IMG/VR virus record: IMGVR_UViG_3300030118_005363
Coordinates: 1 to 61,104 of that record
Length of the DNA: 61,104 nucleotides
Direction: 5' to 3' (one strand)
Source: a virus
Lineage: Duplodnaviria > Caudoviricetes
The notes below the pieces were generated by a model. It was given only the letters and a program-made list of their open reading frames with translations. It was not told where the DNA came from and did not search any database. The position numbers and the translations under genes were made by a program. Below are positions 1,090 to 55,351 of the stretch, in pieces; within the stretch, counting starts at the first letter, position 1, and each line of letters begins with the position of its first letter.

Positions 1090-1742
1090 CCATCTTCATT
1101 CTGCTGTTTTTTCTTGACACCTTTCGGGAGAGAATCTTTGTTGGTTTTGCGCAGTTTATTAGCAACGACTTCATCTTGTCTAACTATTGTTTCCCAATGT
1201 AAGTCATTGTTGCGCACACCAAAAGGTCTTGGGGTTTCGTCACTCTTTTTCTTCTTTGGGTATGACATTCTGCGTATTGGTTTGTGCGCATACGCAATCA
1301 TAGCATGTTGATAATCTTCGGGAACATTAGTGAAAGCCTTAGCCAGTGTGCGCCAAAGCGATATGTCTTTGTTGTTCTCTTTGAGGAAGGAAAGCATCAA
1401 CGGGATAGGCACTTTGGAACACTCGCCAAACGCTTTATTTCTATCACGCCATCTTAGTGTTGCGTCTATGTTCCGAGCATAGTCTTGTTTTTTGAATATA
1501 CCGTCATAAATAACTGCGTCGTTTTTCTTGATGTTTGGGGGATTCTCGCAAACAAAGACCATTCTGTGCGCAATGTAAGGCAACCAAGCAAGACATTCTT
1601 TTGCTTTAGGATTTCTTTCATGAACAATGACTGTCAAATCCTTTACTTGAGGGTTGCAAGAAACATAACCGCCCTCGACAAAATTGCCTTCACGGTATTT
1701 TTGCGCATCATGCGTGAAAATGAGAACGCCCATCCCAAACAC
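1080..1742 (-). CDS. Hypothetical protein (possible degenerate clamp-loader large subunit)
   Basis: 220-aa ORF; PLMLSFLKEN segment and KKQQNEDGWL tail. Function is speculative. Confidence 0.6.
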   Translation of the reverse strand: MFGMGVLIFTHDAQKYREGNFVEGGYVSCNPQVKDLTVIVHERNPKAKECLAWLPYIAHRMVFVCENPPNIKKNDAVIYDGIFKKQDYARNIDATLRWRDRNKAFGECSKVPIPLMLSFLKENNKDISLWRTLAKAFTNVPEDYQHAMIAYAHKPIRRMSYPKKKKSDETPRPFGVRNNDLHWETIVRQDEVVANKLRKTNKDSLPKGVKKKQQNEDGWL

Positions 1743-1971
1743 CTGCTCGTCTATATTCTTTCACGCCGTTTTTTTTGCGCCCTTCAAGTGCGCCTTTGCT
1801 TTCAAGAATACGCAGGGCTTTTGCAACCGCATACACATTCATGTGCATGTGTGCTTGAGGCAACGCTCTAATTGCTCTTGGCAACAAGGCATCTGCGCTA
1901 AACCATTTATCGGTCTGTTCCCAATCTCCGATTGCTCGCTCAACCGCATGCTTTCTGTATGACTTGCTCAT
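1708..1971 (-). CDS. Putative winged-helix protein
   Basis: NVYAVAKALRILESKGALEGRKKNGVKEY resembles a recognition helix plus wing. Confidence 0.5.
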   Translation of the reverse strand: MSKSYRKHAVERAIGDWEQTDKWFSADALLPRAIRALPQAHMHMNVYAVAKALRILESKGALEGRKKNGVKEYRRAGVWDGRSHFHA

Positions 1972-3156: not shown

Positions 3157-3792
3157 TCAGTCAATTACCTCCCATTCAGTATCTTGAACATGAGTAGGGG
3201 ATTTCATTGCGCCGATGCGCATTTCGATTTGATTCAGCAATTTAGGTTCATTGCGCAAAGTATCAACGAGAATACCCATTACTCCATTTACTTGCTGATG
3301 CGCAAGTAGCATTTGGGAATCAACCCCTATTTCTTTCTTCAATGTGCCTATGAGTTTTATGTTAGTATTAGCCTGCGCAACAAGACGGGTAGCAGTGGAT
3401 AACCATTCAGCATCTATCCCATCCCTTGACTTCTGCGCTTCCCATTCATCGAGCCAGTTTGTTATTCTTGAAAACACATCTTCCGCCATATCAAGAGTAG
3501 TAATCGCTTCACTGCGAGCCTTTTCAACAGTTTCGGCTTCTTCGGGGTCATAGTCCATGTGCGCAGTCATGTGTTCTTCAACAATGCCTGCTTCCCAGTT
3601 ATTCTTTGCTTCAAGATAAGCGGTAGTGATTGCGCCATTAAAAATTTGTATCTCCCAATCCCGCCTATCCTTATGTGCGCATAGAGGGCATTCGGGTGAT
3701 TCAAGAACCCACTTCAAAGCCTCTATAATCATCGGGTCATCTTCATGCGCAAGTCTTTGTTCAATCAACCATTTACTTTTCATCTGTTTCAC
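3157..3792 (-). CDS. Zn/HTH plus coiled-coil protein (terminase small subunit candidate)
   Basis: CPLCAH...EEHMTAH motif followed by long amphipathic helices. Confidence 0.55.
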   Translation of the reverse strand: MKQMKSKWLIEQRLAHEDDPMIIEALKWVLESPECPLCAHKDRRDWEIQIFNGAITTAYLEAKNNWEAGIVEEHMTAHMDYDPEEAETVEKARSEAITTLDMAEDVFSRITNWLDEWEAQKSRDGIDAEWLSTATRLVAQANTNIKLIGTLKKEIGVDSQMLLAHQQVNGVMGILVDTLRNEPKLLNQIEMRIGAMKSPTHVQDTEWEVID

Positions 3793-4072: not shown

Positions 4073-4350
4073 ATTTCCACTTCCCTGTTCGCTAAATCCC
4101 AAACCCCGTCGCCTAAATGTTTGAATCTTTTTTCTGTGTCGTTTATCAGCGCAAAATACATTGCGGTGTGCATAGGTATTCCGCAACGCAGTTTTGTTCC
4201 TTTCTTTGTGGTTGCGCCACAAATCAAATCCTTCTTATGTAGTGCGCCTCTTTCTTTGAGCAAACGCTCGCAAGAATCGAGAAACGCTTTGTATTTTGTA
4301 ACATTGCCCGTTCTGCTACTTCTATAATGAACAACCTTATTCTTTTTCAT
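4069..4350 (-). CDS. Putative HARE-HTH-like winged-helix protein
   Basis: LLKERGALHKKDL...RFKHLGDGVWDL pattern. Confidence 0.5.
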   Translation of the reverse strand: MKKNKVVHYRSSRTGNVTKYKAFLDSCERLLKERGALHKKDLICGATTKKGTKLRCGIPMHTAMYFALINDTEKRFKHLGDGVWDLANREVEI

Positions 4351-5641
4351 GCGCCATAACCTCGTCAAACCCAAATCGGCACATAACACCTTTGCGCCCT
4401 CGCCCTGTTTTCTTAGGGGTATATTCTTTGAACCACGCCTGCCCCAACAAGTATTCCTCTATCCATCGCTTTGCGCTTTGGTAATCGTTGTTGGTAATCA
4501 AGCGAGCAATGTCTTTGAGCAGAACAGAACGGGGAACATCTTTGTTCCAAAATGTAGTCCGAATCAAGCGTATATCTTCATCGAGAACGGTTCTGCGCAT
4601 CTTCAAAGAAGATTCAAGAATTTCACGCAGTCTGTCGTCTAACTCGACCATAAGTAATTCTTTGTCCTCCCACTCTCCTTTCATCATTGTGTAACCGATT
4701 GCCAGTCTGCGAAATAAATCCGATTCAAAACTGCGCACTGTTTCTTGTAAGACCCACTTCTCAAAATCTTCACCAAACACAACCCCTTGTGGTTTTTTAT
4801 CCATGACCTTTTTCTGTCTTTCAATGAACCATTTGCGCAATTCTATCGAGTCTTGGATTAACTGCCTTCTTTTTGCAGGCTCAATACTTGCCTGCTTGTT
4901 CTGCGCATGCTTGTATAACATCTCCTTTTCGGGAGTCATTTCTATGTCTATGATAAAGAACCTACGGTCAAGACCGGACTCTAATTCAAACCGAGCAGGT
5001 TGTGTTCCCGCCCACATTGTCATGCGTGTGTTGTATTTCACCCAACCACTGCGCATTGATTTGTTCACCCTTCCGCTATCAAGCGATGTAAGCAATTGGT
5101 TCTTCATATCAACGCTATGGTCTTTGCGTGAAGCATCGGACATACTGCTAAATTCTTCAAAGCAAACAAATCCACCGCACATATACCGAGCAACGGGATT
5201 ACCCATGATTTCACCTTCTTCATTCACCGACCCAAACATACCTGCCTCCGTGATACTGTTTGCGCCGAACATGGTTCTGAAACCTGTTCCTTTCAAGGCA
5301 TCGTTGTTCCAAAGTAACCCAGTGTTTTCTGCGCAGAATAAATCAAGCAATACATTCTTCCCCGAACCTTTCTGTCCTCTCACTAAAATATTAATGCGTG
5401 TATCTGCAAGACGGGTAGCGGGTGTGTAAATAGGATAATCTGTGTGGCGCAAAGGACAAGGCTCAATCGTAAAAGCACCCTCCGAAGCAGTCAATGGGTC
5501 GAAATCGCACATACTGCATTTATTTACGGCATTGAATAGGTGTGCGCCTATACTGCACAAAAAGATAGGAACTTTGTCTTGCACATCAACCAAATAATTG
5601 TCATCGCAAAACTTCTGAACCCTATCAAATATATCCTTCAC
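4337..5641 (-). CDS. mcm: MCM-like replicative helicase (AAA+)
   Basis: INILVRGQKGSGK (Walker A), SITEAGMFGSV, GGFVCFEEF (Walker B), arginine finger LDRRF. Confidence 0.8.
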   Translation of the reverse strand: MKDIFDRVQKFCDDNYLVDVQDKVPIFLCSIGAHLFNAVNKCSMCDFDPLTASEGAFTIEPCPLRHTDYPIYTPATRLADTRINILVRGQKGSGKNVLLDLFCAENTGLLWNNDALKGTGFRTMFGANSITEAGMFGSVNEEGEIMGNPVARYMCGGFVCFEEFSSMSDASRKDHSVDMKNQLLTSLDSGRVNKSMRSGWVKYNTRMTMWAGTQPARFELESGLDRRFFIIDIEMTPEKEMLYKHAQNKQASIEPAKRRQLIQDSIELRKWFIERQKKVMDKKPQGVVFGEDFEKWVLQETVRSFESDLFRRLAIGYTMMKGEWEDKELLMVELDDRLREILESSLKMRRTVLDEDIRLIRTTFWNKDVPRSVLLKDIARLITNNDYQSAKRWIEEYLLGQAWFKEYTPKKTGRGRKGVMCRFGFDEVMAHEKE

Positions 5642-6660: not shown

Positions 6661-6729
6661 CTTATTTATTTCAAGCCTTTTGAAAGAATTAAGAAAGAAT
6701 TAATCAAGCGACTGTTAGCAAATCGGCTT

Positions 6730-6865
6730 TATTTTTTCAATTCTTCTAAGGTGTGTAAGAATTATTCTAAAGGGGCGTTTAATTCTAAATGTCTAAGAAC
6801 AAATAAATTAATTGCGCAGGTAGCCTTGCAGTGCGCCGATTATTTTTTTCTTAATTCTTTATTGG
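6730..6865 (-). repeat. AT-rich element, inverted homologue of 22950-23095
   Basis: Shares TTTATTTGTTCTTAGAYATTTAGAAT, AGAATAATTYTTACAYACCT and AATTAAGAAAAAA blocks in the same order. Confidence 0.8.
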
Positions 6866-7690
6866 AGGAAGAAAGAATAATCTTGATGTTCTGTTATGTT
6901 CAATTTCATCAACCTCTCGGAATAACATACCTGTCCTATCATTGCGCCATAATATACTTGCGCCAATCGGGTCATATCCTTTATCGCATAACTCATAGTG
7001 TGTTTGCGCAATACTACTAATAATTTCAGCAGGTTCGGTGCGCTTTACCGTAGCGTGAGGGCGATAGTCACCACCTTCCCCCGAACCTAAAACAATGCTT
7101 GAAATCAATACATCAGTTTCCATATCAAACGCTTTGCTTTCGCTCAAAGACTGCGCAATCACTAATCGGGGATAATCACCAACAACCAGTGAAGGTAGCC
7201 ACTTTATACCTACTCCGTAAATGCGCATGGGGAGATACAAGCAAATTGATTCGCCCCATGACTTCGGCGCAGTCAAGATTGTTTTTGGTTTGGTTTGCGC
7301 TTTAACAGATACCTGCGTGTAGCCATCAAACATATCGGTAGTGTTCGGTTCGGGCATATATGCGTGTGCGCACCTAAACGCAAGAATATGAATTTTTGAT
7401 TCATGGATGAAATCTTGTAGGTCTTGCGCAAAAGTCTGTTCATACACAAACTCGCCCTTCATACCTTGATTGACAATTCTCTTTGGCATGTTAGGTTGCA
7501 CTGCGTCAATTAAATCCCAAACTGCGCTTTTACCATCAACCGCAATCCGGTATTCACCCATGCGCAAGATAGCAAAGGGCTGAAACAAACGACGCTTACC
7601 TGCCCTTCTCCAACCAATAAATCGCTCGACAATAACATCTTGGGGGCGTGCTAAAATCCACTCGGCACAGTATCTAAACGGTTGCATCAA
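6851..7690 (-). CDS. Hypothetical protein
   Basis: 279-aa ORF with GGTTCATAAG promoter-like element at about 7711-7720. Confidence 0.65.
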   Translation of the reverse strand: MMQPFRYCAEWILARPQDVIVERFIGWRRAGKRRLFQPFAILRMGEYRIAVDGKSAVWDLIDAVQPNMPKRIVNQGMKGEFVYEQTFAQDLQDFIHESKIHILAFRCAHAYMPEPNTTDMFDGYTQVSVKAQTKPKTILTAPKSWGESICLYLPMRIYGVGIKWLPSLVVGDYPRLVIAQSLSESKAFDMETDVLISSIVLGSGEGGDYRPHATVKRTEPAEIISSIAQTHYELCDKGYDPIGASILWRNDRTGMLFREVDEIEHNRTSRLFFLPPIKN

Positions 7691-9115: not shown

Positions 9116-9134
9116 GTTCAAGGATATAAACCCT
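9116..9134 (-). promoter_or_regulatory. Early-type promoter AGGGTTTATATCCTTGAAC
   Basis: Matches the motif at 10808, 12536, 14766 and 18314. Confidence 0.75.
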
Positions 9135-14819: not shown

Positions 14820-15232
14820 GAGTAATTAATTTAATGCGTGCTGTGTGTGTGCGTGTGCCTCATGTGTGTATGTGTGTGCGTAGGCGCAGGCTCGGCGGGA
14901 GGCAAAATAAATCTTAGAGTTTCTTTGCGCATATAGGCAGGCAAAAAGGAAACTTTTGCGTAGAACATTGTTTGGAACGACGCACTGCGCTGAACCTTTC
15001 GGCTTTGTCTGCATGGCTTGCGCTGAATCCGAATCAATCAGAATTTTTGCTGATTTGCAAAAATCAAAAACTGCGCAGATTGCGCCGATTCAAAAAAATA
15101 AAAAAAATCGCACCGTTTGGCCTTTCAGTGGGCTGTTTAGACACGGTGCGCACATCTAAACTCAAGCCGTTTTTTTCTTATTTCTGCCCTCCTTTTTTCT
15201 TCCGAATTGTCTTTCAGTCTATCGTTTAGCCC
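14820..15232. other. Non-coding region with (TG)-rich tract, A-tracts and two array-type motifs
   Basis: TGTGTGTGTGCGTGTG...TGTGTGTATGTGTGTGCG at about 14835-14882; CTTTCAGTGGGCTGTTTAG (~15122) and CTTTCAGTCTATCGTTTAG (~15211). Confidence 0.7.
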
Positions 15233-16275: not shown

Positions 16276-18288
16276 TCAGACTGCACCCCACATATTTTCA
16301 TCAGTGAAGTCAAGTTCAATTTCTTCGCCGTAACCCATTTTCATTGCGTTTTCTTCGCCCCATTGAACGCACAAATTGCGCAAAGCCCAATCCTCACTTG
16401 CACCGGCGGCGACATGCTCGGCGGCTGATGCAATGGCACGGTATGAAATTACAACCCTTGAAATTTCATGCTCATTTGCAAGTCTGCGCACTTCTCTGAA
16501 TTTATCAGCAAAGGCAACAGAACCGGCGACGGCGTTTTCAATGGCCTTTGAATAATCAATCTTCACAAATTGACCGGCGAACCTGTCAAGCGTTGCAGAG
16601 TCTTGAGTATTGGCGGCGTTATACTTGGGGTCTGAACCTTGACCCATTGTATTTGCAGTGCCGACAAATACGGTTGAAGAATGGCGCAGAATTTTTTCGC
16701 CTTTCGGAGTATAGAAAAATCCGTTTGCAAGGACTGCATTCAATGCGCTCAATGTTGAAGGGTGTAGTCTGTCAATTTCATCAAGAACAATGAGGCCACC
16801 GTTCTCAAACACCGGTGCAATTGCGCCTTTGATGTAATCCCATTCGCCTGCCGGTCTGCCCGAACCATCATCAAAGAAGCGAGGCGATTCACGACCAATC
16901 AATTCTTGACTCTGCAAATCTTTGTTGCATGATAATATGAACATATTTTTCGCTTCGCTTGGCTTCTTCAATCCATGTGATTTCCAATAGCCTGCGCCGA
17001 TTAGAGCATTGAATAATTGCTCACAAATGCGAGTTTTACCCGTTCCGGCATCGCCATGTAGGTATAGATTATTCATTGCACCACTGCGCACTATTCGCCA
17101 CATCAATTCAGACATTTTCTCATGAACAATACCCTTGATTTTCAAGGCCGGTTTTGAACCGGATTTGACATGAAGAATTGTAGGTTTTCCGATTGAATTT
17201 AGTTTCTCATCTATGCCCTTCTTGATGGCTTCAAATTGCGCAGAGTGTGCAGACATTTGTTCACCGATAACTTGAGCGAGTGCCTCACTGTTCAAATTCC
17301 ACTGTTCAAGTGAAACCTTTGTAGCAATTTGGCGCACTAAATCCTCATCAACGCCGCCGCCGACAATATCTCTAATCGCTTTCAGTGCGTCTTTTTCTTG
17401 CACTTTTGGCGCAGTCGGCTCAAGGTCAATCGAGATTTTCTTTGTCATTGTTGCAACAGGTGAAACAGGCTCGACAGGTTGCGTTTTTGGTGGCGTTGGT
17501 ATCGGCTCTGAACCTATGTATTCAGTTTTCATAATTTCAGACTCGGCGCAGGATTGACAAACCGGCTTATTCTGTTTGCCATAAAGAGGCAACATAACCA
17601 TATATTCGCCTTTGTATATCTCAATATGGCATGATTTGCAGGTTTTTGGTGCAGGTTTGGAGTATTTTCGCACCGTAAAACCTGCGTCTTTGTAGGCTTG
17701 CAAGCCTGTTGGGGTTGGTTGCCTCTTAGCCATCAAACTCATTCCAAATAGGCCACTGTTCAACAATTTAGGCATGAAAATCCATGCAATCAAGGCGGAT
17801 AATCCCACAATCGCAAGTGTAAACGCTATACTGCGTGCCACTTCAACGGTTTCATTGTTGGGTTTTCCAGACATTTGAAGAAGTCCCTCATCAATGTTGC
17901 AATCGGCGCATAATCCATTACTGAAATGTGGCGCAGTGTTGCATTCAGACTCTTGACAAATCGGGCAAATGCTCAATTCATCATCAAGATATAGCGGCGC
18001 AGTGTCCTTTTTACCCTTGAATAATAGGGTTCTTAGAATTGCACCTTTGAGGTTTTTACGCCTTGAGGCTAATTCTAAACGGTGGACTGCACGCTTAAAC
18101 GCATGTCGTGAAACATGGTTCATTGATTGAGGCATGAGCCTCTTATCTTGCTCGCAGTGTGTCATTTGTTCGGTCATTGAGTCAGCGTCAGACTCCTTGC
18201 TTATGGTTTCCAAATCCATTGAGGCAGGTGCTAAAAGGCACACTGCGACAACGAACAACATTTTTGTTATGTTTGTTTGTGTTAGCAT
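16276..18288 (-). CDS. MoxR/CbbQ/CobS-like AAA+ ATPase with N-terminal TM and Zn-binding extension
   Basis: GDAGTGKT, LIVLDEIDR, GTANTMGQG, DSATLDRF. Start 18288 is supported by a GGTGA RBS and the promoter at 18314-18333. Confidence 0.8.
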   Translation of the reverse strand: MLTQTNITKMLFVVAVCLLAPASMDLETISKESDADSMTEQMTHCEQDKRLMPQSMNHVSRHAFKRAVHRLELASRRKNLKGAILRTLLFKGKKDTAPLYLDDELSICPICQESECNTAPHFSNGLCADCNIDEGLLQMSGKPNNETVEVARSIAFTLAIVGLSALIAWIFMPKLLNSGLFGMSLMAKRQPTPTGLQAYKDAGFTVRKYSKPAPKTCKSCHIEIYKGEYMVMLPLYGKQNKPVCQSCAESEIMKTEYIGSEPIPTPPKTQPVEPVSPVATMTKKISIDLEPTAPKVQEKDALKAIRDIVGGGVDEDLVRQIATKVSLEQWNLNSEALAQVIGEQMSAHSAQFEAIKKGIDEKLNSIGKPTILHVKSGSKPALKIKGIVHEKMSELMWRIVRSGAMNNLYLHGDAGTGKTRICEQLFNALIGAGYWKSHGLKKPSEAKNMFILSCNKDLQSQELIGRESPRFFDDGSGRPAGEWDYIKGAIAPVFENGGLIVLDEIDRLHPSTLSALNAVLANGFFYTPKGEKILRHSSTVFVGTANTMGQGSDPKYNAANTQDSATLDRFAGQFVKIDYSKAIENAVAGSVAFADKFREVRRLANEHEISRVVISYRAIASAAEHVAAGASEDWALRNLCVQWGEENAMKMGYGEEIELDFTDENMWGAV

Positions 18289-18313
18289 TTTGCTCACCGA
18301 TTGATTAAACATA

Positions 18314-18333
18314 GGTTCAGGATATAAACCCCC
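18314..18333 (-). promoter_or_regulatory. Early-type promoter GGGGGTTTATATCCTGAACC
   Basis: Conserved motif. Confidence 0.75.
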
Positions 18334-18339
18334 AACATC

Positions 18340-19880
18340 AGACCGAAAAACCGTTGCACTGAAAGCCAATAGGCTCGCAGTGTGCCTCGATGCAAGAAGG
18401 GGTTTGATTGATATATTATATCTTGACGCACCACGGTTTTGATTTTTGCTCGGCGCATTTTCAAAACAGGCTCGCAGTCCATCGTTTTTGATGCAGTGCA
18501 ACGATTTCAAAAGGTGTCGGCTCAAAGTCGGCGCAGACCGAAAATTAATAGCGGCGCAGTCTATCATTCAGAAATTGCGCAGGCTTTCAGTATAACGGTT
18601 TTGTCAAACAGCCTTGCAGTCTATCGTTTAGACTAAGGCGCAGATTTTGAACAGGCTTTCAGTATAGCGTTTTTCTCTTATAGATTCTGAAAATGGCCGG
18701 ACTCAAGGCCGGACAGAAAAACGGCCAAAACAGGCTTTCAGTCCATCATTTAGAGTCAAAGGCGCAGAATTATTAATCGGCTCGCAGTCTATCGTTTAGC
18801 CATTTTTGTGATTTCTGAAAATCCTAAACGGCGCACTGCAAAGGTGTAGTTTCTGCACCGATGGCAAAATAGCGGCGCAGTCTATCGTTTAGGTCTTTTC
18901 ATCCGATTTCAAGACCATTTGCCAAAGTCCGAAAACCGGAAATTTACGGCGCAGGCTTTCAGTCCATCGTTTAGAATCCGTAAAAGGGTCACTGCTCTAC
19001 ACTGCAACCATTGGTTAAGTAGCGGCGATGAGCCAAAATGAGGGCAGGCTCGCAGTATATCGTTTATGTCCGGTAAATGTCAAGCCGGTAGGGGTCATCG
19101 GTCACGCAGTCCATCGAATACGGCGCAGTGCATCGAATAGGGTTTTGAGCAAAAGGCTCGGCGGCTTCGCAGTCCATCGTTCAGAGGGCTTTTTTTCAAC
19201 CCATTTACCGGAAACCGGAAACTCAAACAGAAAACGCAGTCCATCGGTTTTGCTCGGAAATTTTCAGAACGGCGCAAATCAATGATGCAACAAGGCGAGA
19301 TATGAACACTGCGAGCCTGTTTTTCGGCGCAAAAATCCATCAGACAAAATCAAAACCGTTGCACTGAAAAAGTGAGAATTGGTTCATTTTGCTCATTTTG
19401 CTCAATTTCCATAAATGCGCAGTTTGAAACCGTATTCCGGTAAATAGGGCATTGATATTTGAAATAATATGTTCACAATCAAGAACGGTAGGCTCGCAGT
19501 CTATCGGTTTGAGGTCACTGGAAACCTGTTGCTCAATGTCTGATAATTTGAAAAATGGCTTGCAGTATAACGGTTATGGGGTCGGTAGGCTCGCAGTCAA
19601 GCGTTTAGACAATCGGCGCAAAAACTCCAACCATAACAAATATCAACAAATTTCCGTCACAAAATGATTCTATGTTAATCGGTTAAGGTTGCCCTAAATT
19701 TTTTATTTTGCGCAGAATAGTGGGGGGATAGGCTCGCAGTGCCACATTCAGAAAAAAAATATGGCCGATTTTTTAGTGCCATTATGCTCAAATTAATAGT
19801 AAATCGTTAATTGTTATTAAATGCGCATTCAGAAATCATTCGGCGCAGACCAAAACAGGCTTGCAGTGCAACGGTTTTGA
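18340..19880. repeat. Array of about 25 degenerate GGCTYKCAGTNYANCGKTT motifs in a gene-free region
   Basis: For example AGGCTCGCAGTCCATCGTTTT (18468), AGGCTTTCAGTATAACGGTTTT (18581), AGGCTTTCAGTCCATCGTTTAG (18953), AGGCTTGCAGTGCAACGGTTTT (19857); a few are inverted (~18346, ~19305, ~19353). Confidence 0.9.
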
Positions 19881-20002
19881 AAAATCAAACGGTCAAAAAA
19901 TAGTGCGCAATAATGCGCCAAAAACTGCGCATACTGGCGGCGGCACACACGCCAACCACCGCAAAAAATTATCCGTATTTTTTTCAAATTGGGCTTATAA
20001 AC

Positions 20003-21505
20003 CTAAAAAAACGGCACAAACCGTTTATTTCTTGTAATTCTTTTAGATTTTTTACCCGCAGACCACTTTGACGCATCTAATGACCCTCCAACGACTGCTA
20101 AACCAGTGTTTTGAGCCGATTTTACTTGGTCTATGGCATGTGCAAGTGCCATTACAGTGTCATTATGCTTGCCTTTGTCTGTTATGTCGCCGTTTTTCCA
20201 TACATGCGACTCTAACTCGTCAAGTAGTATGCTCATAACACGCCTTGTTTCATCGTTGCCGTATGGTATAATGACTTTTTCTTGTTCAAACCACACTCTA
20301 AGACGATTTAACAATCCTTGCTTCAAAGTTTTGTTAGATACCTTGCTCATTTGCAAATTTAGAGTAAGACCCTTTTGGTTGATTAGTGATTGATACAAAG
20401 ATTGGAAACCTGCGCTTTCAAATGCAAATACTGGGTGCTTGTATGCGTCATCAAAGTCTTTAATTACTTTAATTTGTTTAGCAGGCGGGAAATCATTGCG
20501 TCGCCACATATTTACAATATGAACATTGCCGTCTTTGTCTTGCCTAAGCACAATTGCAACAGTATAGTCTTGTCCGATACCATGTGAAGGGTCAAATCCA
20601 ACAATGTAATCGCCGTCATGTAGTTTTTGTTTTTGCAATATTCTATCCATGTCAAGATTTTTGCGAGTAAGTGTTTGTGGAAATACTGCGCTATCATCAT
20701 CAACAACCATACAAAGATACTCTTGCGCAAATGCTAACTCACCAATAGCCTCTCTTTGTTCAAGTAAAAACTCAAGAGGGCGTTCATCAGCCCAAAGACA
20801 AACAGGTTTTACATTGTCGGGGTCATTGCGCCATTCATCATAATTAACAATTGCACCTTTCTGCCATGTTTCCCATGCGTCATTACCTAACATTTCAGTA
20901 TGGTAAAGGTCATTCATACTCATAGGTGTGCCAACACAAAACAAACTGGTCTTAGGTGATAGCATAGGTGTAAGTTTTTTTCTAAACCATTGCTGATATA
21001 CTTCATAGGACATATCATTTTGGTCGTCAATAATATCATCAAGAGCAATTGCGGCGGGGTGTTCACCACGAATACCCGAACCAACCGATGTAGCCTTAAT
21101 CCATGCCCCATTTGTCAAACGCAATTCAAATCTGTTGCCTTTTGTCAAATCAACCTTTTTAGATAATTCGGGGTGTCTTTTTAAATCTTGGCGTATTTCT
21201 TCTAAACGATTCATTGCAAGGTCTTTATTTGCAGAAAATAACCAAATAGTGAAAGGTTTGCCTCGCCACTTTTCAAAAAGTAGCATGTGTAATAACTTTA
21301 CACGAAGCGTTGTGGACTTAGAGTGGTCACGAGGCGCAATAATACAAACACGGTGAACTTGTTTTCCTTCATTGTTTCCATACAAGTCAAGCCATTCTTG
21401 AATATGGTTGCCCCATTTGTAACCTAACCATTCATAAAAATGGCGTATATCATAACGACTACGCTCAAGATGAAAGGTTGTCATTAAACGAACCATCGTC
21501 ACCAC
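20003..21505 (-). CDS. terL: Terminase large subunit
   Basis: APRDHSKST (Walker A), IRGEHPAAIALDD (Walker B), VGTP, nuclease motifs GFDPSHGIGQDY and HNDTVMALA. Confidence 0.92.
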   Translation of the reverse strand: MVTMVRLMTTFHLERSRYDIRHFYEWLGYKWGNHIQEWLDLYGNNEGKQVHRVCIIAPRDHSKSTTLRVKLLHMLLFEKWRGKPFTIWLFSANKDLAMNRLEEIRQDLKRHPELSKKVDLTKGNRFELRLTNGAWIKATSVGSGIRGEHPAAIALDDIIDDQNDMSYEVYQQWFRKKLTPMLSPKTSLFCVGTPMSMNDLYHTEMLGNDAWETWQKGAIVNYDEWRNDPDNVKPVCLWADERPLEFLLEQREAIGELAFAQEYLCMVVDDDSAVFPQTLTRKNLDMDRILQKQKLHDGDYIVGFDPSHGIGQDYTVAIVLRQDKDGNVHIVNMWRRNDFPPAKQIKVIKDFDDAYKHPVFAFESAGFQSLYQSLINQKGLTLNLQMSKVSNKTLKQGLLNRLRVWFEQEKVIIPYGNDETRRVMSILLDELESHVWKNGDITDKGKHNDTVMALAHAIDQVKSAQNTGLAVVGGSLDASKWSAGKKSKRITRNKRFVPFF

Positions 21506-21698
21506 TCCTATGAAAAATCGGGAAGCCGCAATACTCGGCTAAAGCATAGGCTAATGACTCGACTTCATTTCTGTCAAGCATTATACCTACAACCATTTCT
21601 TCTGAAAATAAATTAATAGCAATATAATCTTCGCCCATGTCAGCGATACGCAATTGTCTATCGGGGCTAATCCATATAGGCATCTGCATTCCTTCCAT
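21465..21698 (-). CDS. Small hypothetical protein
   Basis: Overlaps both neighbours in the operon. Confidence 0.55.
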   Translation of the reverse strand: MEGMQMPIWISPDRQLRIADMGEDYIAINLFSEEMVVGIMLDRNEVESLAYALAEYCGFPIFHRSGDDGSFNDNLSS

Positions 21699-22890
21699 TT
21701 AACGAGTTAAGTAGTCTTAGTCCATGTCGTAAGTCTGTAAATGCCTGTATATCTCTTGTTTCTGAATCAAGAATAACCATAGGTGATGTTGGGCGTTCTC
21801 TTGGGAATCCACACATTTCACCAAAACTGTCAATAGTTTTATATGCGCCGGGTCTAATAGACCAACGCTCAACCGCATGACGAGTAAATGGAACAACAGA
21901 TGGTGTATGATGATGGCCTATTACCCCAATATCAAAATCACACTCTCCATCATCCCACATTTTCTTAATTACACGGCTTGGGTCAAGATTTGAGTTACCC
22001 CTTCGCTTATGTCTAATTGACAAATGATAAGGAATATTACCATGAATAACTTTGAGGTTTAACTCATACGGATGATACAAAACTCCCCTGTCTTGAGCAA
22101 GACGCTTTAGTGGGTCATAATCTGTTGCGCCCGCAGTCCAAAGGTCATGATTCCCCGCAACAATAGCCATAAGTGAAGTAGGAGTCATGTTAATGTAATG
22201 TTCACATAACTGCCACTGGATAGAAGGCGGAATTGGTGCTTTCATTGCAGGTCGGGGCTTGTCAATCATAAAGTTATCAATATAGTCACCTGCATGTATA
22301 ACATAGCAATCGGGGTGTGCTTCTATTTGTTCTGTGTCACGGCGTAACCTTTCATGGTCACAAAAGGGATTACCTATGTGTTGGTCACTTTGAAATGCAA
22401 TACCAATATAGCGAGCAGGGTTTTTCATGTGGAAAACCGCCCAACGAGCATCTTCGTTAGCAAGAATAGCGGCTTTTGACCGTTCTTCAATAGCACCCCA
22501 AAGACTTTCACCTGTTGATGCAGACTTTTTTAGATGCTCAACAATAAAATGTGGTGTTTCTGTTTGTTTAACTGCTTCACGCTCATACGCACGCCTAACT
22601 CTATTTTCCCAACCAACCTTTGATATTTCGGGAAATCGTTTTGCCATAATCATTGCTAACTGATTCATGTTACCATCAAACTCTAAAGGTATTTGTGCAT
22701 TATAGTCAATAATTTCAATTGTTGGAAATATATCGGGTTCATGTTGCTTTAGCATACGCAAACGCCAACGGTGTGCTTCTGCATCTATTTCAGACATAAC
22801 AGTAGCCATGTGTCTTGCAAATTTAGCCATATTACCATCATAGTGAGAAATTTCTGCTCGGACTGTATCTATGTAGTCATCATTGCTCAT
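21667..22890 (-). CDS. Calcineurin-like metallophosphoesterase with N-terminal tandem helical repeats
   Basis: SDQHIG, AGDYIDN, GNHD, GHHH motifs. Confidence 0.85.
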   Translation of the reverse strand: MSNDDYIDTVRAEISHYDGNMAKFARHMATVMSEIDAEAHRWRLRMLKQHEPDIFPTIEIIDYNAQIPLEFDGNMNQLAMIMAKRFPEISKVGWENRVRRAYEREAVKQTETPHFIVEHLKKSASTGESLWGAIEERSKAAILANEDARWAVFHMKNPARYIGIAFQSDQHIGNPFCDHERLRRDTEQIEAHPDCYVIHAGDYIDNFMIDKPRPAMKAPIPPSIQWQLCEHYINMTPTSLMAIVAGNHDLWTAGATDYDPLKRLAQDRGVLYHPYELNLKVIHGNIPYHLSIRHKRRGNSNLDPSRVIKKMWDDGECDFDIGVIGHHHTPSVVPFTRHAVERWSIRPGAYKTIDSFGEMCGFPRERPTSPMVILDSETRDIQAFTDLRHGLRLLNSLNGRNADAYMD

Positions 22891-22949
22891 GGTTTGTGCT
22901 TGTGTATATTAACACTTAAATGCTTGGTATAATTAATTCTTTTTTACTT

Positions 22950-23095
22950 ATAGAAAAAATTAAGAAAAAATAAACCGTGTTACTGAAAGCCTGTTGTTGT
23001 TATTATTTTATTTGTTCTTAGATATTTAGAATAAAAGGCGCATTATTCTGTAAGAATAATTTTTACATACCTAAAGAATAAAAAAAAGAATAAAC
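22950..23095 (+). repeat. AT-rich element, inverted homologue of 6730-6865, in the divergent packaging/portal intergenic region
   Basis: Same blocks as 6730-6865; contains the array motif on the minus strand (GGCTTTCAGTAACACGGTTT). Confidence 0.8.
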
Positions 23096-23318
23096 AGAAA
23101 TCGTAATACTCAAGCCCATTTATTTTTTCTCAATTTTTTCTTTCGCCTTGAAAGAATAAATAATGCGACTAAAATCCACCAAATTATTTCAATAACTACT
23201 AAAACAACGCCGCCTTTTGTTACAGCCGCCGGAATATCCATAAATCACACAGTCTTTGTCTGACTTTTTATTCTTTTTCGGGCATACCTTGATAAAGCAA
23301 ACCTTCATAACACACAAC

Positions 23319-24731
23319 ATGGCTCGGATTCCTTTCTTTGGTGAAATCGGAAAAAAGAAAAAAACCGATGAACCAAAAGCAGTTACATTCACAAATGATG
23401 AAATGCGATACAATGTCGGACACCGTTCACCATTTCAAATGATTGCAGGTTTGAGCGACATAGTAAATGAAACAAACAAACTGCGTGATGACTCAAATTT
23501 TAACAATGATTTTTACTTATTTGATGAAATGCTAAAACTTGACCCCGAATTGAACGGCGCAGTGCGTGCAGTATCTTTAACTGCTAATAATTATACAATA
23601 AATTGGCGTTCTGCAAAAAATGCTCGCATACGCAACGCCCTGCAAGGCTTGATTAATAATATTGACTTTGACGACATACTAATCAATTCTATGCGCAACC
23701 TTATGGTTTATGGAAATGATGTAAATAAATTGGTTGGAACAAGCCGTGAAGGTATAACTGATGTGCAAAACTTGCCTGTTGCGCAAATAACAATACTTGA
23801 TGACAGAAATAGAACTGCAACCGCAGATGAAAATACACCTGTTATAGCGGCACAAAGATATTTTTTGCGTGAAGGCGAAACAACCATGCAAGAGTTTCCC
23901 GCAGATGAAATTCTTCATGTGCGCATGGATTATAGAAGCAATTGGTTCACCGACAATGAAAACCGTGTAACCTATGGTCTTTGGGGTTCTTCTCGATTTA
24001 CTGCTTTGAAACAGGCTATCAGAGCAAAGTATAACAGTATGAATAACAGAATTGCACTTGAAGATGCAATGACAAAGCAATATATTACAATTGATATGGA
24101 AGCGGTCAAGCACATACAAAATCCCGATGAGCAAAGAGAGCGTTTGCTTTTCATAATGAATCAAGTAATTAGCACAATGGAGTCCTTGAGAGGCGACCAA
24201 GTGCCTATTTTTCCCGACTATGTAAAAATACAACACATAGACCAAAGAACTGCGTTGCCCGACAGTGGCGCATTCCTTGATAATGTAAATGCAGACATTG
24301 CCGCAGTATTACAAGTGCCACGAACTGCCGCAGGTCAAGAGAAGGGTAGCACTTTTGCGGCATCATATACTGCAAACCTTTGGGCGAGCAATGCAATAAG
24401 ACGCATACAAAGCATTCTAAAACAATCAGTAATGGAGTTATTTTCTGCGCACTTGAATTTGTTAAAGATAAATCATGTAAAGTCAGACTTGCCGGACTTA
24501 ATCTTTGAGCCTGTTGATGAAGAAACACGACTTGACAAAATGCGCAGGGCATCTTTAGGTTACTCTAACGGAGTTTTGTCATTGAATCAAGCCCTTGAGA
24601 TTGTAGCATTACCTATTGAAGAAGGTGGCGATGTGCGCAAAGACGCACCAGTAAGCACTGAAACGCCCGAAGAAGAACCTGTTGAGGAAAGAGATGAAGA
24701 TGAGGACATGCCAAGAGAAGGTGAAATGTAG
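23319..24731 (+). CDS. Portal protein
   Basis: First gene of the structural operon; DPELNGAV, LMVYGND, DEILHVR, IAAVLQVP patterns; about 470 aa. Confidence 0.8.
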   Translation: MARIPFFGEIGKKKKTDEPKAVTFTNDEMRYNVGHRSPFQMIAGLSDIVNETNKLRDDSNFNNDFYLFDEMLKLDPELNGAVRAVSLTANNYTINWRSAKNARIRNALQGLINNIDFDDILINSMRNLMVYGNDVNKLVGTSREGITDVQNLPVAQITILDDRNRTATADENTPVIAAQRYFLREGETTMQEFPADEILHVRMDYRSNWFTDNENRVTYGLWGSSRFTALKQAIRAKYNSMNNRIALEDAMTKQYITIDMEAVKHIQNPDEQRERLLFIMNQVISTMESLRGDQVPIFPDYVKIQHIDQRTALPDSGAFLDNVNADIAAVLQVPRTAAGQEKGSTFAASYTANLWASNAIRRIQSILKQSVMELFSAHLNLLKINHVKSDLPDLIFEPVDEETRLDKMRRASLGYSNGVLSLNQALEIVALPIEEGGDVRKDAPVSTETPEEEPVEERDEDEDMPREGEM

Positions 24732-50204: not shown

Positions 50205-50363
50205 TTAACTGTCCTTAATAACCTCACGGTGGCCGCAAAACTTGCATATAGCGATTCTCTCATTTCCAGTTTCAATGTCACCAGTCAATAGAATCATAGG
50301 TTTGCCTTGCTCGTTACTAACTGTCATTTCACCATCACATTCTGCGCAAATAATCATAACCAT
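50205..50363 (-). CDS. Small zinc-ribbon protein (not in ORF track)
   Basis: MVMIICAEC...ICKFCGHREV. Confidence 0.55.
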   Translation of the reverse strand: MVMIICAECDGEMTVSNEQGKPMILLTGDIETGNERIAICKFCGHREVIKDS

Positions 50364-51205
50364 TCAGCCTCCGAATCAATACCATACTCTTTTTTTACTT
50401 CAAGTATTCTTTTCTGCGCAATAGATATGTATTTCTCGTTTAACTCGCAGATAATACTCTTTCTCCCGTTCATCATAGCAACAACGGCAGTCGTTCCAGA
50501 ACCACCAAAGGGGTCTATCACAGTGCCTCCAAACGGACAACCTGCAAGGACACAAGGCTCAATCAATTCGGGAGGGAATACTGCGAAGTGTGCTTCGGGG
50601 TATGCTTTAGTGGCGACAGACCAAACACTGCGCTTTCTGCGCAAATCAAAAGAAAAATTCTTACTTCTTTTGAACAAATCATTGTCGTTTCTATCACCGT
50701 TAATACCGTTTGACCTTGAGCCATTTTGATAATTTTTCCGATTAGGGTTAGCAACGGGTTCTTGAATCGCCTCCCAATCAAAATAATACTTTGTCTTTTT
50801 GCTCAAAAGGAAAATATGCTCATGGGATTGAACGCACCTATCCTTTACGGGTTCGGGCATACATGCGGTTTTGTTCCAAATTATATCTTGTCTTACCAAC
50901 CAACCGTCTTTTTGTAGCGCAATAGCAAGTTTGTGAGGTATCATAAGAAGTTTTTTGTTTTTGTATGTATCGCCTATGTTCAGCCAAACAGTGCCGTTGT
51001 CTTTGAGTATTCTGCGCACTTCTCTAAATATCTCAACCATCTTTTCAATATATTCTTCGGGGGTTTCTTCTGCGCCGATTTGACCCTCAATGCCGTAATC
51101 TCTCAAAGAATAATAAGGCGGCGATGTTATGCAACACTGAACATGCTTATCGGGCATCTTCTTCATCAAATCTAAACAATCACCTTCAAGAATTTGATTC
51201 ACCAT
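50354..51205 (-). CDS. DNA methyltransferase, N4-cytosine/N6-adenine beta class
   Basis: TSPPY catalytic motif, HFAVFPPEL, DPFGGSGTT SAM-binding motif. Confidence 0.92.
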   Translation of the reverse strand: MVNQILEGDCLDLMKKMPDKHVQCCITSPPYYSLRDYGIEGQIGAEETPEEYIEKMVEIFREVRRILKDNGTVWLNIGDTYKNKKLLMIPHKLAIALQKDGWLVRQDIIWNKTACMPEPVKDRCVQSHEHIFLLSKKTKYYFDWEAIQEPVANPNRKNYQNGSRSNGINGDRNDNDLFKRSKNFSFDLRRKRSVWSVATKAYPEAHFAVFPPELIEPCVLAGCPFGGTVIDPFGGSGTTAVVAMMNGRKSIICELNEKYISIAQKRILEVKKEYGIDSEAEWL

Positions 51206-52369: not shown

Positions 52370-54601
52370 TCACAGCCATTGCATAGTGTCTGCGCCGTTG
52401 AGGGCATTTTCAAGAGTAATGACATTCCAACCCATGACCTCATAGTAAGGTAAAACTTTATTGTAAATGAACCGTTCAGCGATATGACGATAGCCGATTT
52501 GCGCAATGCCTTCGATTTCCGAAGGGTCATCAAATGCAATATATGCGCCGTTATCATCAAGTGTCGTCAAGAAGTAGTCGTCTTTGCGGTAGCCTTTTCC
52601 TAAGTGGGTGTTAGCCCAATGCGCACCTGCTCTCGCTTCTCCGAGAGTAGTGTATTGGTTTAGATTTTTACTTAACTTTGCCTTGATGCACAAATCTGCA
52701 ATCGGAATTTGTTTGCGCACAACACTGCGCAGTAAATCTTCAATTGAAGAAGTGATTTCGCTTTCAGTTTTATGTTGCAAAATTCCTGTAATCACGGAAG
52801 ATAGCGCAGTCTTACAAGCCTTCGGTAATCTGCCCTGCTTCATTTCAATGCCCTTGACATAGATTTGCGCAGGATGGAAAACACCATCAGTCCATGACAC
52901 ACTGCCTGCGTAGCGGTTCTTAGCCATGATTAGGAAAGTATCACACCACTTTTCAAACTCGGTTTCGATAGGACTCATGCGCTGATTAACTACGCCTAAT
53001 AATTGAAGTCCTTTTTCGGGAGAATCAACATCGCACATGATAGAATCGGTGTGTCCGTAGCGCACTGTGCAACCTAACTCATTTGCAATATCACGCAGTC
53101 TGAAAAGTGTTTGGCGGGAAGTGTATGTTATTGCCGCCGCAATATCGGGATGATAGAAGCCACACTTTGAGTCACCTGCTACCCCATACATAGATGCGAC
53201 AAGGGATTTTGTTGCGTATTGTAATGCGTCATACCTCTTGCGCTCTTTTTCTGTCGGCGCAGATTTCATCTGTTCCTTGTATTTGTTGCGCAGAACAGTC
53301 ATGTTATCCATCTGTCTGCCAAGCAAACCAGTTTTGTGTTTATGGAACATGACACCGTTGCCGCAATCAAAGCCTCCGCCGAGAGTAGTCCAACAAATGT
53401 TATGCAGTTTCACATTACTGTGATACATCGCTTTAATATCCATGATTCCTATGTTTCTATACACACCAACAACGGGGTCTTGAATATCTGCGCCTGTGTA
53501 GTCCACCTTCTCAAACTGTGGCTTGCTTGGTATTTGTTGGTGAAACTCTCTATCACGCAATGCGAGAATCGGAAAAATCTTGCTAACATAAGGCGTAGTG
53601 CGTATGTCACACTGAACAATGTGCTGAATCGCAGTGAAATAGTCAAGTGCGCCAACCAAGTCATCTAATTTAGGCAAAAGGCGCACATCTTGCATTGCGT
53701 AGTCAAGATATGTTCCGAAGTCGTTGTAATAAGTGTCGTGTCCGTCTTTTAACTCAACCTTTGTTTCACCCAAACAATATTCTGAAACTGCGCCTAATCC
53801 CATCGAAGGCAATTGTCCGTTCTTCAAAGTCCATAACTTCTTGAAAGCAATCATCAAATCTATTGTGTTGTAGCCTGCAATCGGTTGCGCCCATTCCCCG
53901 AAGTCATAGCGCACTTTGCGCATAGGGGATAAAGAGCGAATATCAAGTTTATTTGCTTTGAAACGCTTGAACAATTGTTGGCAGTCTGCATTGACTACAT
54001 TCCAACCTGTCAGTATGTCGGGGTCTTTTCTGCGCATAAACTGGGCGAAGTATTGTAGCAATGACTTTTCATCTTTGAACATTTTAATTGGTCTTTCGCC
54101 TTTGCATATCTGCAACCCTTCGGGGTGTTCTTTACATTCAACATGGTCGTAAAGACCACTTTCATATTCGGGGTGATGCGCCAATACAAACTCGCCTTCA
54201 AAGGAATCATGTATGACGATGATTGTTATTTCGCCACTTTCGGTTTTCCATTCCATGTCAAAGAACCATGTCCTGTGTTCATACATCGGGATATTGACAT
54301 TGTGTTCAACAAGAACCCTGTTAGTATGCGCAATGTTAGCCTCCCATGTGCGCATCTTTTTTGCGGTGGCTGAAAGGTCGTCGGTAGTTTGGAAAACAAC
54401 CCTGCGTAGTTTCTCTCCGTAAAGTCCTTCATAACCCTCATCGGGCAACACTGCGAAGGGAGGGGTCAATTTACCTATGTCACTTTCCTCAACATAACAA
54501 AAAGGACTGCAAGAGTATTTGCTTTCGGCACGCTTGCCATCTGCGGTTCGCCATCGAACCACTATGTCATTCTTCTTCGCTCTTTCCACTATCAAAGTCA
54601 A
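52370..54601 (-). CDS. polB: Family B DNA polymerase
   Basis: Exonuclease motifs FDME, GWNVVNAD, YAMQD; polymerase motifs DIKAMYHS, KSLVASMYG, YGHTDS, KNRY, KGIE. Confidence 0.93.
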   Translation of the reverse strand: MTLIVERAKKNDIVVRWRTADGKRAESKYSCSPFCYVEESDIGKLTPPFAVLPDEGYEGLYGEKLRRVVFQTTDDLSATAKKMRTWEANIAHTNRVLVEHNVNIPMYEHRTWFFDMEWKTESGEITIIVIHDSFEGEFVLAHHPEYESGLYDHVECKEHPEGLQICKGERPIKMFKDEKSLLQYFAQFMRRKDPDILTGWNVVNADCQQLFKRFKANKLDIRSLSPMRKVRYDFGEWAQPIAGYNTIDLMIAFKKLWTLKNGQLPSMGLGAVSEYCLGETKVELKDGHDTYYNDFGTYLDYAMQDVRLLPKLDDLVGALDYFTAIQHIVQCDIRTTPYVSKIFPILALRDREFHQQIPSKPQFEKVDYTGADIQDPVVGVYRNIGIMDIKAMYHSNVKLHNICWTTLGGGFDCGNGVMFHKHKTGLLGRQMDNMTVLRNKYKEQMKSAPTEKERKRYDALQYATKSLVASMYGVAGDSKCGFYHPDIAAAITYTSRQTLFRLRDIANELGCTVRYGHTDSIMCDVDSPEKGLQLLGVVNQRMSPIETEFEKWCDTFLIMAKNRYAGSVSWTDGVFHPAQIYVKGIEMKQGRLPKACKTALSSVITGILQHKTESEITSSIEDLLRSVVRKQIPIADLCIKAKLSKNLNQYTTLGEARAGAHWANTHLGKGYRKDDYFLTTLDDNGAYIAFDDPSEIEGIAQIGYRHIAERFIYNKVLPYYEVMGWNVITLENALNGADTMQWL

Positions 54602-55097
54602 GCCTCCAAATATTATGATGTGCTATGTCGTTATAAACCCATTTATGCAGACAGTCTTTTACATCATCAAAGGACTTGACTTTCTTGTAGCCAAGAGAGG
54701 CAACAACGCTTTCAAGGCGAGTCATCTTGATATTTTCCAAAGGGTTTAGAATTGCTATTTTTGGAATAGGTAGTAAAGATTGATTTCTTTCACGCAACAA
54801 GTGCTTGTGTAGTCCTTTACTGCGCCATTCTTTGCGCACATAGGTATTACCAACAAACACGCAGTCGCCAATCACCAATGAGCCTGTGTATGCTATGGCT
54901 TGATTATCCTTCGATGTATCAATCAGAACCCAAAACTCCATGTCGTCATAGAAAGCGGGGTAGCCTTTTTCCGATGCTCTTTGCAACGGTGAACCCCATA
55001 GAACCTCAAGCGATTCGTGCTTATCTACAACAACAGTGTTAATCATCTTTTGCGCCCACCAGTATTTCTTGTTTCTATACCGTGAGTCTTTAGCCAT
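54567..55097 (-). CDS. GNAT-family acetyltransferase
   Basis: YVRKEWRSKGLHKHLL acetyl-CoA motif A; SLGY motif B. Confidence 0.65.
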   Translation of the reverse strand: MAKDSRYRNKKYWWAQKMINTVVVDKHESLEVLWGSPLQRASEKGYPAFYDDMEFWVLIDTSKDNQAIAYTGSLVIGDCVFVGNTYVRKEWRSKGLHKHLLRERNQSLLPIPKIAILNPLENIKMTRLESVVASLGYKKVKSFDDVKDCLHKWVYNDIAHHNIWRLDFDSGKSEEE

Positions 55098-55351
55098 TTG
55101 AAGATAGTCATTGGTGAAACTGCGCATTGTTTTGCAATGTCAGCCATGCTTCTATCCTTCTTGACATATTCTTCAATGAGCCACGATTCATTGCGGTATG
55201 TCTTTTTAGAATCTAATTCGTGCGTTATGTGCGCCATGACATAATGCGGCTCTCCGCAATCAAGACACACGGACTTCTGCCCTTCGCCGTTCTCTATTTC
55301 TATATTCAGTATCGTTTCACATTCTGCGCATTTGTAATTTATCGTTATCAT
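55043..55351 (-). CDS. Zinc-ribbon plus HTH DNA-binding protein
   Basis: CAEC...CLDC; SMADIAKQCAVSPMTIFKWLKTHGI. Confidence 0.75.
   Translation of the reverse strand: MITINYKCAECETILNIEIENGEGQKSVCLDCGEPHYVMAHITHELDSKKTYRNESWLIEEYVKKDRSMADIAKQCAVSPMTIFKWLKTHGIETRNTGGRKR

Follow-up and report, generated by a model that had tools for sequence, protein, structure and literature searches.

A conserved, gene-free array of a degenerate ~25-bp motif behind the terminase gene of a tailed virus and its probable recognition by a DNA-binding protein

The window, that is, the whole stretch of DNA analysed here, is a complete IMG/VR record of 61,104 nt from a tailed virus (CheckV completeness 100). In addition to the large terminase and the portal, it encodes a tail tube protein, a minor tail (tape-measure-like) protein of 1164 aa, nucleases of the ERCC4/HhH and PD-(D/E)XK types and an N6/N4 DNA methylase. 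All cultured phages are distant, with TerL at most 25% and PolB at most 24% identical. For two core proteins there are 183 and 333 clusters of homologues, on contigs of 55-78 kb with Tara Oceans contigs among them, and the viruses concerned form a large, abundant marine group. The locus of interest lies between the terminase gene and the gene of an ATPase, and is laid out as follows:

16276..18288, minus strand: AAA_5 (MoxR/CobS/midasin-like) ATPase gene, adjoining the array (AAA_5 1.8e-13, PHROG 249 3e-37)
18320..18330, minus strand: promoter-like GGTTTATATCC, bordering the array on its left; the ATPase start follows 32 nt downstream
18340..19880, both strands: main array, 24 motif copies with unique spacers
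19282..19331: best-conserved piece of the array, with the atypical inverted copy 19296(-) and the element GATGATGCAAnAAGGCGAGATATGAACACTGCGAGCC
19893..20026, minus strand: conserved segment just past the terL stop, carrying three hairpins that resemble terminators and have T runs, as well as the promoter-like GGTTTATAAGC at 20003-19993
20003..21505, minus strand: large terminase gene terL; the array begins ~120 nt past its stop
21667-22890, minus strand: Mre11-like phosphoesterase gene
23256-24731, plus strand: portal gene

The array is built from an asymmetric motif of ~25 bp with the consensus AACAGGCTYKCAGTnnAnCGtTTAG. We found 21 matches to the plain pattern GCAGTNNANCG in the window where 1.39 are expected, a count reached by 0 of 100 shuffles, and 14 of the 21 fall within 18474-19873, all on the plus strand. 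A 24-nt weight matrix was trained on the window's own sites, and because such training is circular the plain pattern count and the relatives serve as independent checks. By this matrix 42 sites in the window score at least 12 (mean 1.5, maximum 5 in 30 Markov-1 shuffles), and 24 sites within 18340-19880 score at least 13, 20 of them on the plus strand and four on the minus strand (starting at 18346, 18823, 19296 and 19351). The array described in the first-pass annotation, with about 25 copies, mostly on the plus strand and about five inverted, is therefore real and far above chance, and its irregular spacing, given as about 20-180 bp, is measured here as 19-143 bp from start to start of adjacent sites. 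CAGT, described as invariant, is found in 24/24 array sites, and the CG that follows five bases later, described as nearly so, in 20/24, with CA in the other 4/24.

A logo of 119 sites from four genomes resolves a single ~25-bp unit, AA-CA-GGCTYKCAGT-(G/C)YA-n-CG-t-TT-A/T-G, outside of which no position is conserved, and the motif is thus not a two-part promoter. The GGCGCA(G) words that had been noted among the copies are enriched in the array (CGGCGCA occurs 11 times in it and 17 times in the rest of the window), but these words, and GCGCA words in general, stand at no fixed distance from the motif. Helical phasing, which had been proposed as a check, is absent (R 0.12 at 10.5 bp) and an uncorrected 11-bp signal did not hold; the best period, 16, gave a jitter-test P of 0.018 for adjacent same-strand sites and of 0.40 for all pairs. 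AT-rich stretches are present inside the array at 19370-19480 and 19740-19840, and the inverted copies 19296- and 19351- face 19489+ across ~115 bp. The array's best 60-bp window for duplex instability ranks behind 844 other positions of the window.

The earlier observation that 18340-19880 holds no credible ORF stands. The 81-aa ORF at 19095-19340(-) owes its resemblance to relatives to motif copies that it translates, and it has a stop codon in the closest relative, G001. The 763-aa frame that reaches 18300-18567 shows protein-level conservation only from around M94 (18288) onwards. No tRNA and no Rfam family was found in the array region. The array shares with CRISPR the arrangement of repeats parted by unique spacers, but it is not a CRISPR array: the spacing is irregular, the repeats are degenerate, 4/24 copies are inverted and no cas genes were seen, and Tandem Repeats Finder reported no regular CRISPR-like array. 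Nor is the array a hairpin-rich RNA, its fold z values being -2.4 and -4.4 against -13.3 for the corresponding region of a sister clade.

On the terL side, the segment 19893..20026 is conserved in all close relatives and, judging from its hairpins and T runs, seems to close off minus-strand transcription ahead of the array. The promoter-like GGTTTATATCC on the other side is also present upstream of several other minus-strand genes. With terminator-like hairpins at one side and GGTTTATATCC at the other, the array looks insulated from minus-strand transcription, and this position between the terL hairpins and the next promoter-like motif favours a role at the level of DNA. The N-terminal part of the neighbouring ATPase carries CxxC motifs and a hydrophobic helix. 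The protein was rejected as an Orc1/Cdc6 (TIGR02928 gives 15.1 bits against a cut-off of 181.3 and covers the P-loop only), and no Rep initiator family matched this neighbour in Pfam, PHROG, NCBIfam and PDB searches.

The motif is not confined to the array, and the copies found elsewhere include those reported earlier at 15.1-15.2, 6.8 and 23.0 kb:

17375..18253, 5' third of the ATPase gene: spill-over copies 17375+, 17818-, 17926+, 17992+, 18074-, 18147+ and 18230-
22970..22993, minus strand: single copy where the Mre11-like/terL operon and the portal operon diverge, in an AT-rich intergenic region
15118..15230, plus strand: two copies (15118 and 15207) in the 420-bp intergenic region that follows the DUF7192 gene, just past its stop
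6821..6844, plus strand: single copy, 7 nt past the stop of gene 6851-7690

The dispersed intergenic copies are thus four in number, three of them antisense to transcription, while 24 others are clustered. The 5' zone of the ATPase gene holds 2-9 motif copies in relatives. Among the closest relatives (clade A, below) the outlying copies hold corresponding positions, one ~3 kb upstream of the terL stop, within the divergent intergenic region, and the other 4.3-5.5 kb downstream of that stop, after the DUF7192 gene; the 22970 copy is kept at the equivalent place in G001, G003 and G004, and the copies at 15118 and 15207 have equivalents in relatives as well. The 22970 copy sits in the least stable duplex of the genome (22.9-23.1 kb) and near the minimum of cumulative GC skew, a minimum that coincides with a switch in gene strand and so cannot be read as an origin.

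TerL searches yielded 18 and then 80 loci, and those with at least 1200 nt after terL fall into three states:

Clade A, TerL at least 78% identical, 12 loci: 12-23 motif sites and 0-1 perfect 8-bp-stem hairpins after terL
Clade B, the sister clade, TerL 62-75% identical, 20 loci: 0-2 motif sites and 7-21 unique perfect 8-bp-stem hairpins in 1.5 kb
Clade C, TerL 54-61% identical, the remaining loci: portal gene after terL, directly in most, and no comparable gene-free region

The state of clade C reflects a different gene order. In clades A and B the filled region after terL is of similar length, 1.3-1.7 kb, and it holds motif sites in 12/12 clade A loci and hairpins in 20/20 clade B loci. The five complete clade A genomes have 25, 23, 22, 22 and 20 sites in the 1750 nt after terL, with 14-20 antisense to terL and 4-8 sense. 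The site positions and spacers turn over among relatives while the number of sites stays: only G001 is collinear across the array, and the others can be aligned in patches and by the motif only. The piece at 19282..19331 is present in G000, G001, G002, L017 and L029, and over 51 nt it matches that of L017 (TerL 82% identical) at 96%. Between G000 and G001, 420/478 site columns (87.9%) are identical compared with 763/1063 spacer columns (71.8%; Fisher p 7e-13), and CAGT and C17, the C of the CG, are 100% conserved.

Genomes that lack the array nevertheless contain the motif. L074 has an inverted pair (4946-/5078+), 110 bp apart, in an AT-rich divergent intergenic control region, L018 has a weak inverted pair (8364-/8502+) around AT-rich DNA upstream of its Mre11-like gene, and L087 has one copy ~190 nt after terL. 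The strict pattern matched 2, 0, 0, 3 and 1 times in five genomes that lack the array, and its reversed control 0 times. These 0-3 copies, the inverted pair of L074 and the window's single copy in the equivalent region together indicate that an older site was amplified into the array in this one clade, the amplified unit being a probable protein recognition site that already existed.

It is very probable that the array consists of recognition sites for a DNA-binding protein, since the ~25-bp unit is asymmetric, its two invariant blocks are under purifying selection, the spacers are free to vary and the copy number is conserved. Between roughly half a helical turn and a full turn separates the CAGT block from the CG-TT block, the arrangement expected of a monomer that reads two adjacent grooves. 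The protein is probably encoded by the virus, and the array most likely provides docking sites for a protein that controls replication or gene timing. The proposal of a cis-acting protein-binding array is in this respect supported, by the two-block motif, by conservation of sites above spacers, by the 12/12 close relatives and by the single copies in intergenic places, but its variant of a partition-like centromere is not: partition families are absent among the 45 of 83 ORFs scanned, the motif is non-palindromic, and the copies are irregularly spaced rather than regular tandem repeats.

The following genes provide candidate binders and the predicted replication proteins of the virus:

1708..1971, minus strand: 87-aa ORF with sub-threshold winged-helix matches, a weak lead as candidate binder
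3157..3792, minus strand: 211-aa conserved protein with an invariant CxxC...HxxxH and long helices, a weak lead as candidate DNA-binding protein
4337..5641, minus strand: predicted MCM-like replicative helicase with C-terminal winged-helix-like domains, a candidate binder or initiator
52370-54601, minus strand: family B DNA polymerase (PolB)
59095-59982, minus strand: RFC-like clamp-loader ATPase

The ORF at 4337-5641 has no Pfam or PHROG match. Its AlphaFold model, built with 36 homologues (pTM 0.80), has MCM2-7 and archaeal MCM chains as its top Foldseek matches (E 1e-10, probability 1.00), and in its predicted fold the protein matches an MCM-like helicase. The fold predicted for the 211-aa protein is of low confidence and found no structural match. 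The 87-aa ORF occurs in all four array-bearing genomes compared and was not found in G005. A further ORF, at 55043-55351, gave a weak HTH match only. The giant ORF of 2454 aa matched no Pfam family and so lends no weight to the idea that a virion RNA polymerase uses the sites as promoters.

We lean, somewhat short of even confidence, towards an iteron/ORB-like array for the control of replication, either an origin or a titration cluster. The ~24 sites of the array and the ~7 in the neighbouring gene would be recognised by one sequence-specific DNA-binding protein, and would be iteron/ORB-like elements of an archaeal-type replicon with an MCM-like helicase, PolB and an RFC-like clamp loader. 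The array would either load the initiator or helicase, or titrate the initiator in the manner of the auxiliary iteron clusters of plasmids, and as a result the timing or copy number of replication would be set beside the packaging gene. This role is favoured by the archaeal-type replisome, by the extra C-terminal winged-helix-like domains of the MCM-like helicase, by the inverted pairs around AT-rich DNA in the distant relatives L074 and L018, by the position of the 22970 copy in the least stable duplex near the GC-skew minimum, and by analogy to the auxiliary iteron clusters of plasmids and satellites. Counting against it, no initiator gene stands beside the array, no outstanding AT-rich unwinding element is found in it (the least stable DNA is 3 kb off), and the array has neither helical phasing nor DnaA boxes: TTWTNCACA has 10 matches in the window where 12 are expected, 0/10 of them in the array. 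Moreover, single copies after stop codons or upstream of promoter-like motifs would suit a transcription factor equally well, and the sister clade has hairpins and at most two motif copies at the same place, a hint that the function may not depend on this motif.

The predicted replication genes of the window match the module of PolB, clamp, RFC, primase and MCM that the main text of PMC5434244 reports in all 26 magrovirus genomes. In the main texts examined on magroviruses and viruses of Poseidoniales, PMC5434244 among them, nothing is said of non-coding repeats, of intergenic elements or of origins. The MGII archaeal host presumed in the first-pass annotation is plausible because the replisome is magrovirus-like, yet the sole relative within a prokaryote genome bin, a 61-kb contig with a TerL 56% identical, belongs to an Opitutales MAG. 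Mimicry of host sites was rejected for this MAG, which outside the viral contig has 7 motif matches against 6 for controls in 1.7 Mb and hence no enrichment.

The alternative that keeps most of its force, although we regard it as doubtful, is that a viral transcription regulator uses the array as a set of operators or roadblocks, or is titrated by it as by a sink. The motif would then be a repressor or activator site that serves a small number of promoters and gene ends (22970, 15118/15207, 6821, 18346), and the array would separate the late terL operon from its neighbour as an insulator or buffer a regulator that times the early-to-late switch. Of the eight strong sites that lie in neither the array nor the ATPase gene, four are in the few intergenic gaps, directly past stop codons or upstream of GGTTTATATCC, and a sense copy precedes the first start codon of an operon by 58-108 nt at 22970 and 18346 in the window, at 5078 in L074 and at 8502 in L018. 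Site orientation is biased relative to transcription. Stoperators, according to PMC9283540, are likewise asymmetric; their repressor binds as a monomer, and they also halt elongation. On the other hand, terminator-like hairpins already stand downstream of terL, the promoter-like motifs at 9122, 10815 and 12542 have no site nearby, and Pfam scans covering 45 of the 83 ORFs turned up weak HTH matches but no repressor-like gene. To our knowledge, ~24 operators in 1.5 kb of gene-free DNA match no known system.

The oriented sites of clade A, amplified from one ancestral control site, and the hairpins of clade B might be two interchangeable builds of one 1.3-1.7-kb control locus behind terL in a widespread family of marine viruses, a programmed barrier or sponge that couples the end of replication to packaging by stalling forks or polymerases or by soaking up initiator. 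We think this unlikely; if true, it would represent a type of viral cis-element not yet described.

A packaging function, as a pac-type terminase-loading array or a genome-end region, is improbable. It would account for the start of the array ~120 nt after terL, and the end overlaps of two related records are classed as direct terminal repeats; the overlap of G001, of 124 nt, fits a circular or permuted assembly, and the records begin at different places. However, the array is downstream of terL rather than at a terS gene, no small terminase was recognised (the 77-aa ORF ahead of terL matched no family), and motif copies elsewhere and in array-less relatives are unlike a unique pac site. Known pac and cos sites are also much smaller. 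A 217-nt unitig at 19751-19967, of ~2x flank depth, was considered as a terminal repeat, but is best read, from assembled contigs of four DNA runs, as a segment common to co-occurring strains.

We would give a similarly small chance to a structural barrier or fragile zone that stalls forks or RNA polymerase or seeds recombination-dependent replication, by means of protein-bound sites here and DNA hairpins in the sister clade. The same place is filled, at similar length, in all loci of clades A and B, the orientation bias of the sites is strong, and the virus encodes nucleases that are structure-specific (ERCC4/HhH, PD-(D/E)XK, Mre11-like). The argument is purely positional, however, and it may be that accessory DNA of unrelated kinds was inserted in the two clades at a rearrangement junction.

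The chances are slimmer still for a role at the RNA level, in which the repeats of a non-coding RNA would sequester an RNA-binding protein or a defence component. Repeat-bearing decoy RNAs such as CsrB and pseudo-ToxI are known in bacteria and phages, and the promoter-like motif at 19993-20003(-) points into the array region, but the terminator-like hairpins with T runs follow that motif within ~100 nt, the copies occur in both orientations, and apart from pairing of inverted copies there is no stable fold and no Rfam family. That the motif is a selfish short repeat, spread in dispensable DNA and functionless for the virus, is very unlikely: its positions do turn over between relatives and its copies do collect in non-coding DNA, but the cores are conserved well above the spacers, copy number and place are kept over TerL identities from 97% down to 78%, and neither terminal inverted repeats nor a transposase-like gene came to light, the weak HTH of ORF 55043-55351 being the only match.

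For the reading that we prefer, recognition sites of a protein controlling replication or gene timing, the 24-bp site under clear selection provides a direct handle, in that a single oligonucleotide could fish out the binding protein. Identification of this binder would make replication or gene-timing control testable in an uncultured virus-host system. The contrast between the motif array and the hairpins of the sister clade, moreover, constitutes a natural experiment on how such a locus can be built.

Among known systems, auxiliary iteron clusters exist in plasmids, P1 incA being an example. For a satellite, the Vibrio PLE, part of the text of PMC7145576 describes a 2.7-kb non-coding region with repeats and RepA iterons. 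Like iteron clusters, the array comprises many asymmetric sites of ~20 bp in a gene-free stretch, in both orientations, kept by selection and reaching into the neighbouring gene. Iterons are several direct repeats of about 17-22 bp, and in the array the ~25-bp motif is repeated 24 times, with 20 of the copies pointing the same way. Unlike iteron clusters, it has at least 24 irregular, unphased copies, no adjoining Rep-type gene and no marked AT-rich element inside.

Archaeal ORB and mini-ORB arrays stand beside orc1/cdc6. The array resembles them in its asymmetric boxes and in the archaeal-type replisome with a predicted MCM-like helicase, and perhaps also in inverted pairs that flank AT-rich DNA (in L074, weakly in L018, and at the array centre), the window's divergent region having a single copy. 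It differs in that no Orc1/Cdc6 gene was found and the adjoining AAA+ protein is MoxR/CobS-like, and the likeness is one of layout, not of ORB consensus.

Stoperators are sites of 13 bp that are dispersed over the genome. With those of cluster A mycobacteriophages, as described in part of the text of PMC9283540, the array shares one asymmetric site at a promoter region and at gene ends, an orientation bias and a plausible monomeric, two-domain reader; it differs in the crowding of most copies into a single gene-free block of 1.5 kb and in that no homologue of a repressor was recognised in the 45 scanned ORFs of 83. The injection stop signal region of phage T5, according to part of the account in bioRxiv 10.1101/866236, is large, untranslated, crowded with repeats and conserved among relatives. 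The likeness lies in conserved, repeat-rich, gene-free DNA, to which our sister clade adds inverted repeats and palindromes, whereas the T5 region as described there has 8 DnaA boxes and a location in the terminal repeat, and the window's array has no DnaA boxes. None of these families has all of its defining features in the array, which is set apart by its copy number, by spacing that is irregular, by a neighbouring gene that is not the cognate one and by its alternation with the hairpins of the sister clade.

Six palindromic 4-mers (CGCG, ACGT, AGCT, CTAG, GATC and GTAC) do not occur once in the whole 61-kb window. TCGA, whose base composition matches that of five of these six, is found 132 times counting both strands, or 0.29 of expectation, and GCGC and TGCGCA exceed expectation by 4-fold and 20-fold, respectively. 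When the window was compared with five related virus genomes (G001-G005), we found that the set of absent palindromes varies by strain. CTAG and GTAC, both absent from the window, occur 36 and 61 times in its closest relative, G001, with which it shares ~84% DNA identity over terL and the array; G004 has 47 copies of CGCG and G005 124 copies of CTAG, again words that the window lacks. That strains differ in this way points to restriction sites being purged very fast, strain by strain. The window also encodes a DNA methylase:

50354-51205 (-), N6/N4 DNA methylase gene

Among the five relatives, no counterpart of this gene is found in G001, G002, G003 or G005, and G004 provides a weak partial match (28% identity across 0.4 of the length). 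The methylase gene is accessory and specific to the strain, and the genome that carries it strongly avoids restriction sites.

In clade B, the relatives whose TerL is 62-75% identical to that of the window, the position of the array is occupied by 1.3-1.5 kb of gene-free DNA containing 7-21 different perfect GC-rich hairpins (20 loci), many with TTTA or TAAA loops. The region has a fold z-score of -13.3 and zero matches in Rfam. Examples from three relatives' loci are:

L018 11515-12750, clade B hairpin region
L020 8821-10100, clade B hairpin region
L087 11480-12640, clade B hairpin region

Seven copies of the array motif overlap the coding sequence for the N-terminal part of the ATPase (16276-18288, -), and the translated motif accounts for some of the peptides found there. 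The N-terminal 300 residues are poorly conserved, with 27-43% identity between relatives, and the array may be the source from which part of this coding sequence grew.

The word AAGAATWA occurs 37 times in the window, where 8 occurrences would be expected, and is concentrated in two intergenic regions (6680-6880 and 22930-23275), and its clusters adjoin single copies of the array motif. Two further copies of the array motif lie in a 420-bp intergenic region that also contains a Z-DNA-prone, TG/TGTG-rich tract (14842-14878).

The 434-residue protein encoded at 4337-5641 (-), with zero Pfam and zero PHROG hits, is a predicted MCM-like helicase. The protein possesses an invariant Walker A motif, a Cys/His zinc site and winged-helix-like domains at its C-terminal end, and its 333 homologue clusters, none of them named, come from marine metagenomes.

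A promoter-like motif, GG(G)TTTATA(T/A)CC, is found ~15-45 nt 5' of many genes in the window, oriented with the gene (8 matches, 1.1 expected):

9122 (-), promoter-like motif
10815 (-), promoter-like motif
12542 (-), promoter-like motif
14773 (-), promoter-like motif
18320 (-), promoter-like motif
19993 (-), promoter-like motif
35307 (+), promoter-like motif

The ~100 nt past the terL stop (19893-20003, -) are near-identical throughout clade A, the array-bearing relatives with TerL at least 78% identical to that of the window. Since two or three hairpins come after the promoter-like motif there, along with T runs, this segment may represent a compound terminator or a gene for a small RNA. The motif itself resembles a TATA box, which would fit an archaeal host.
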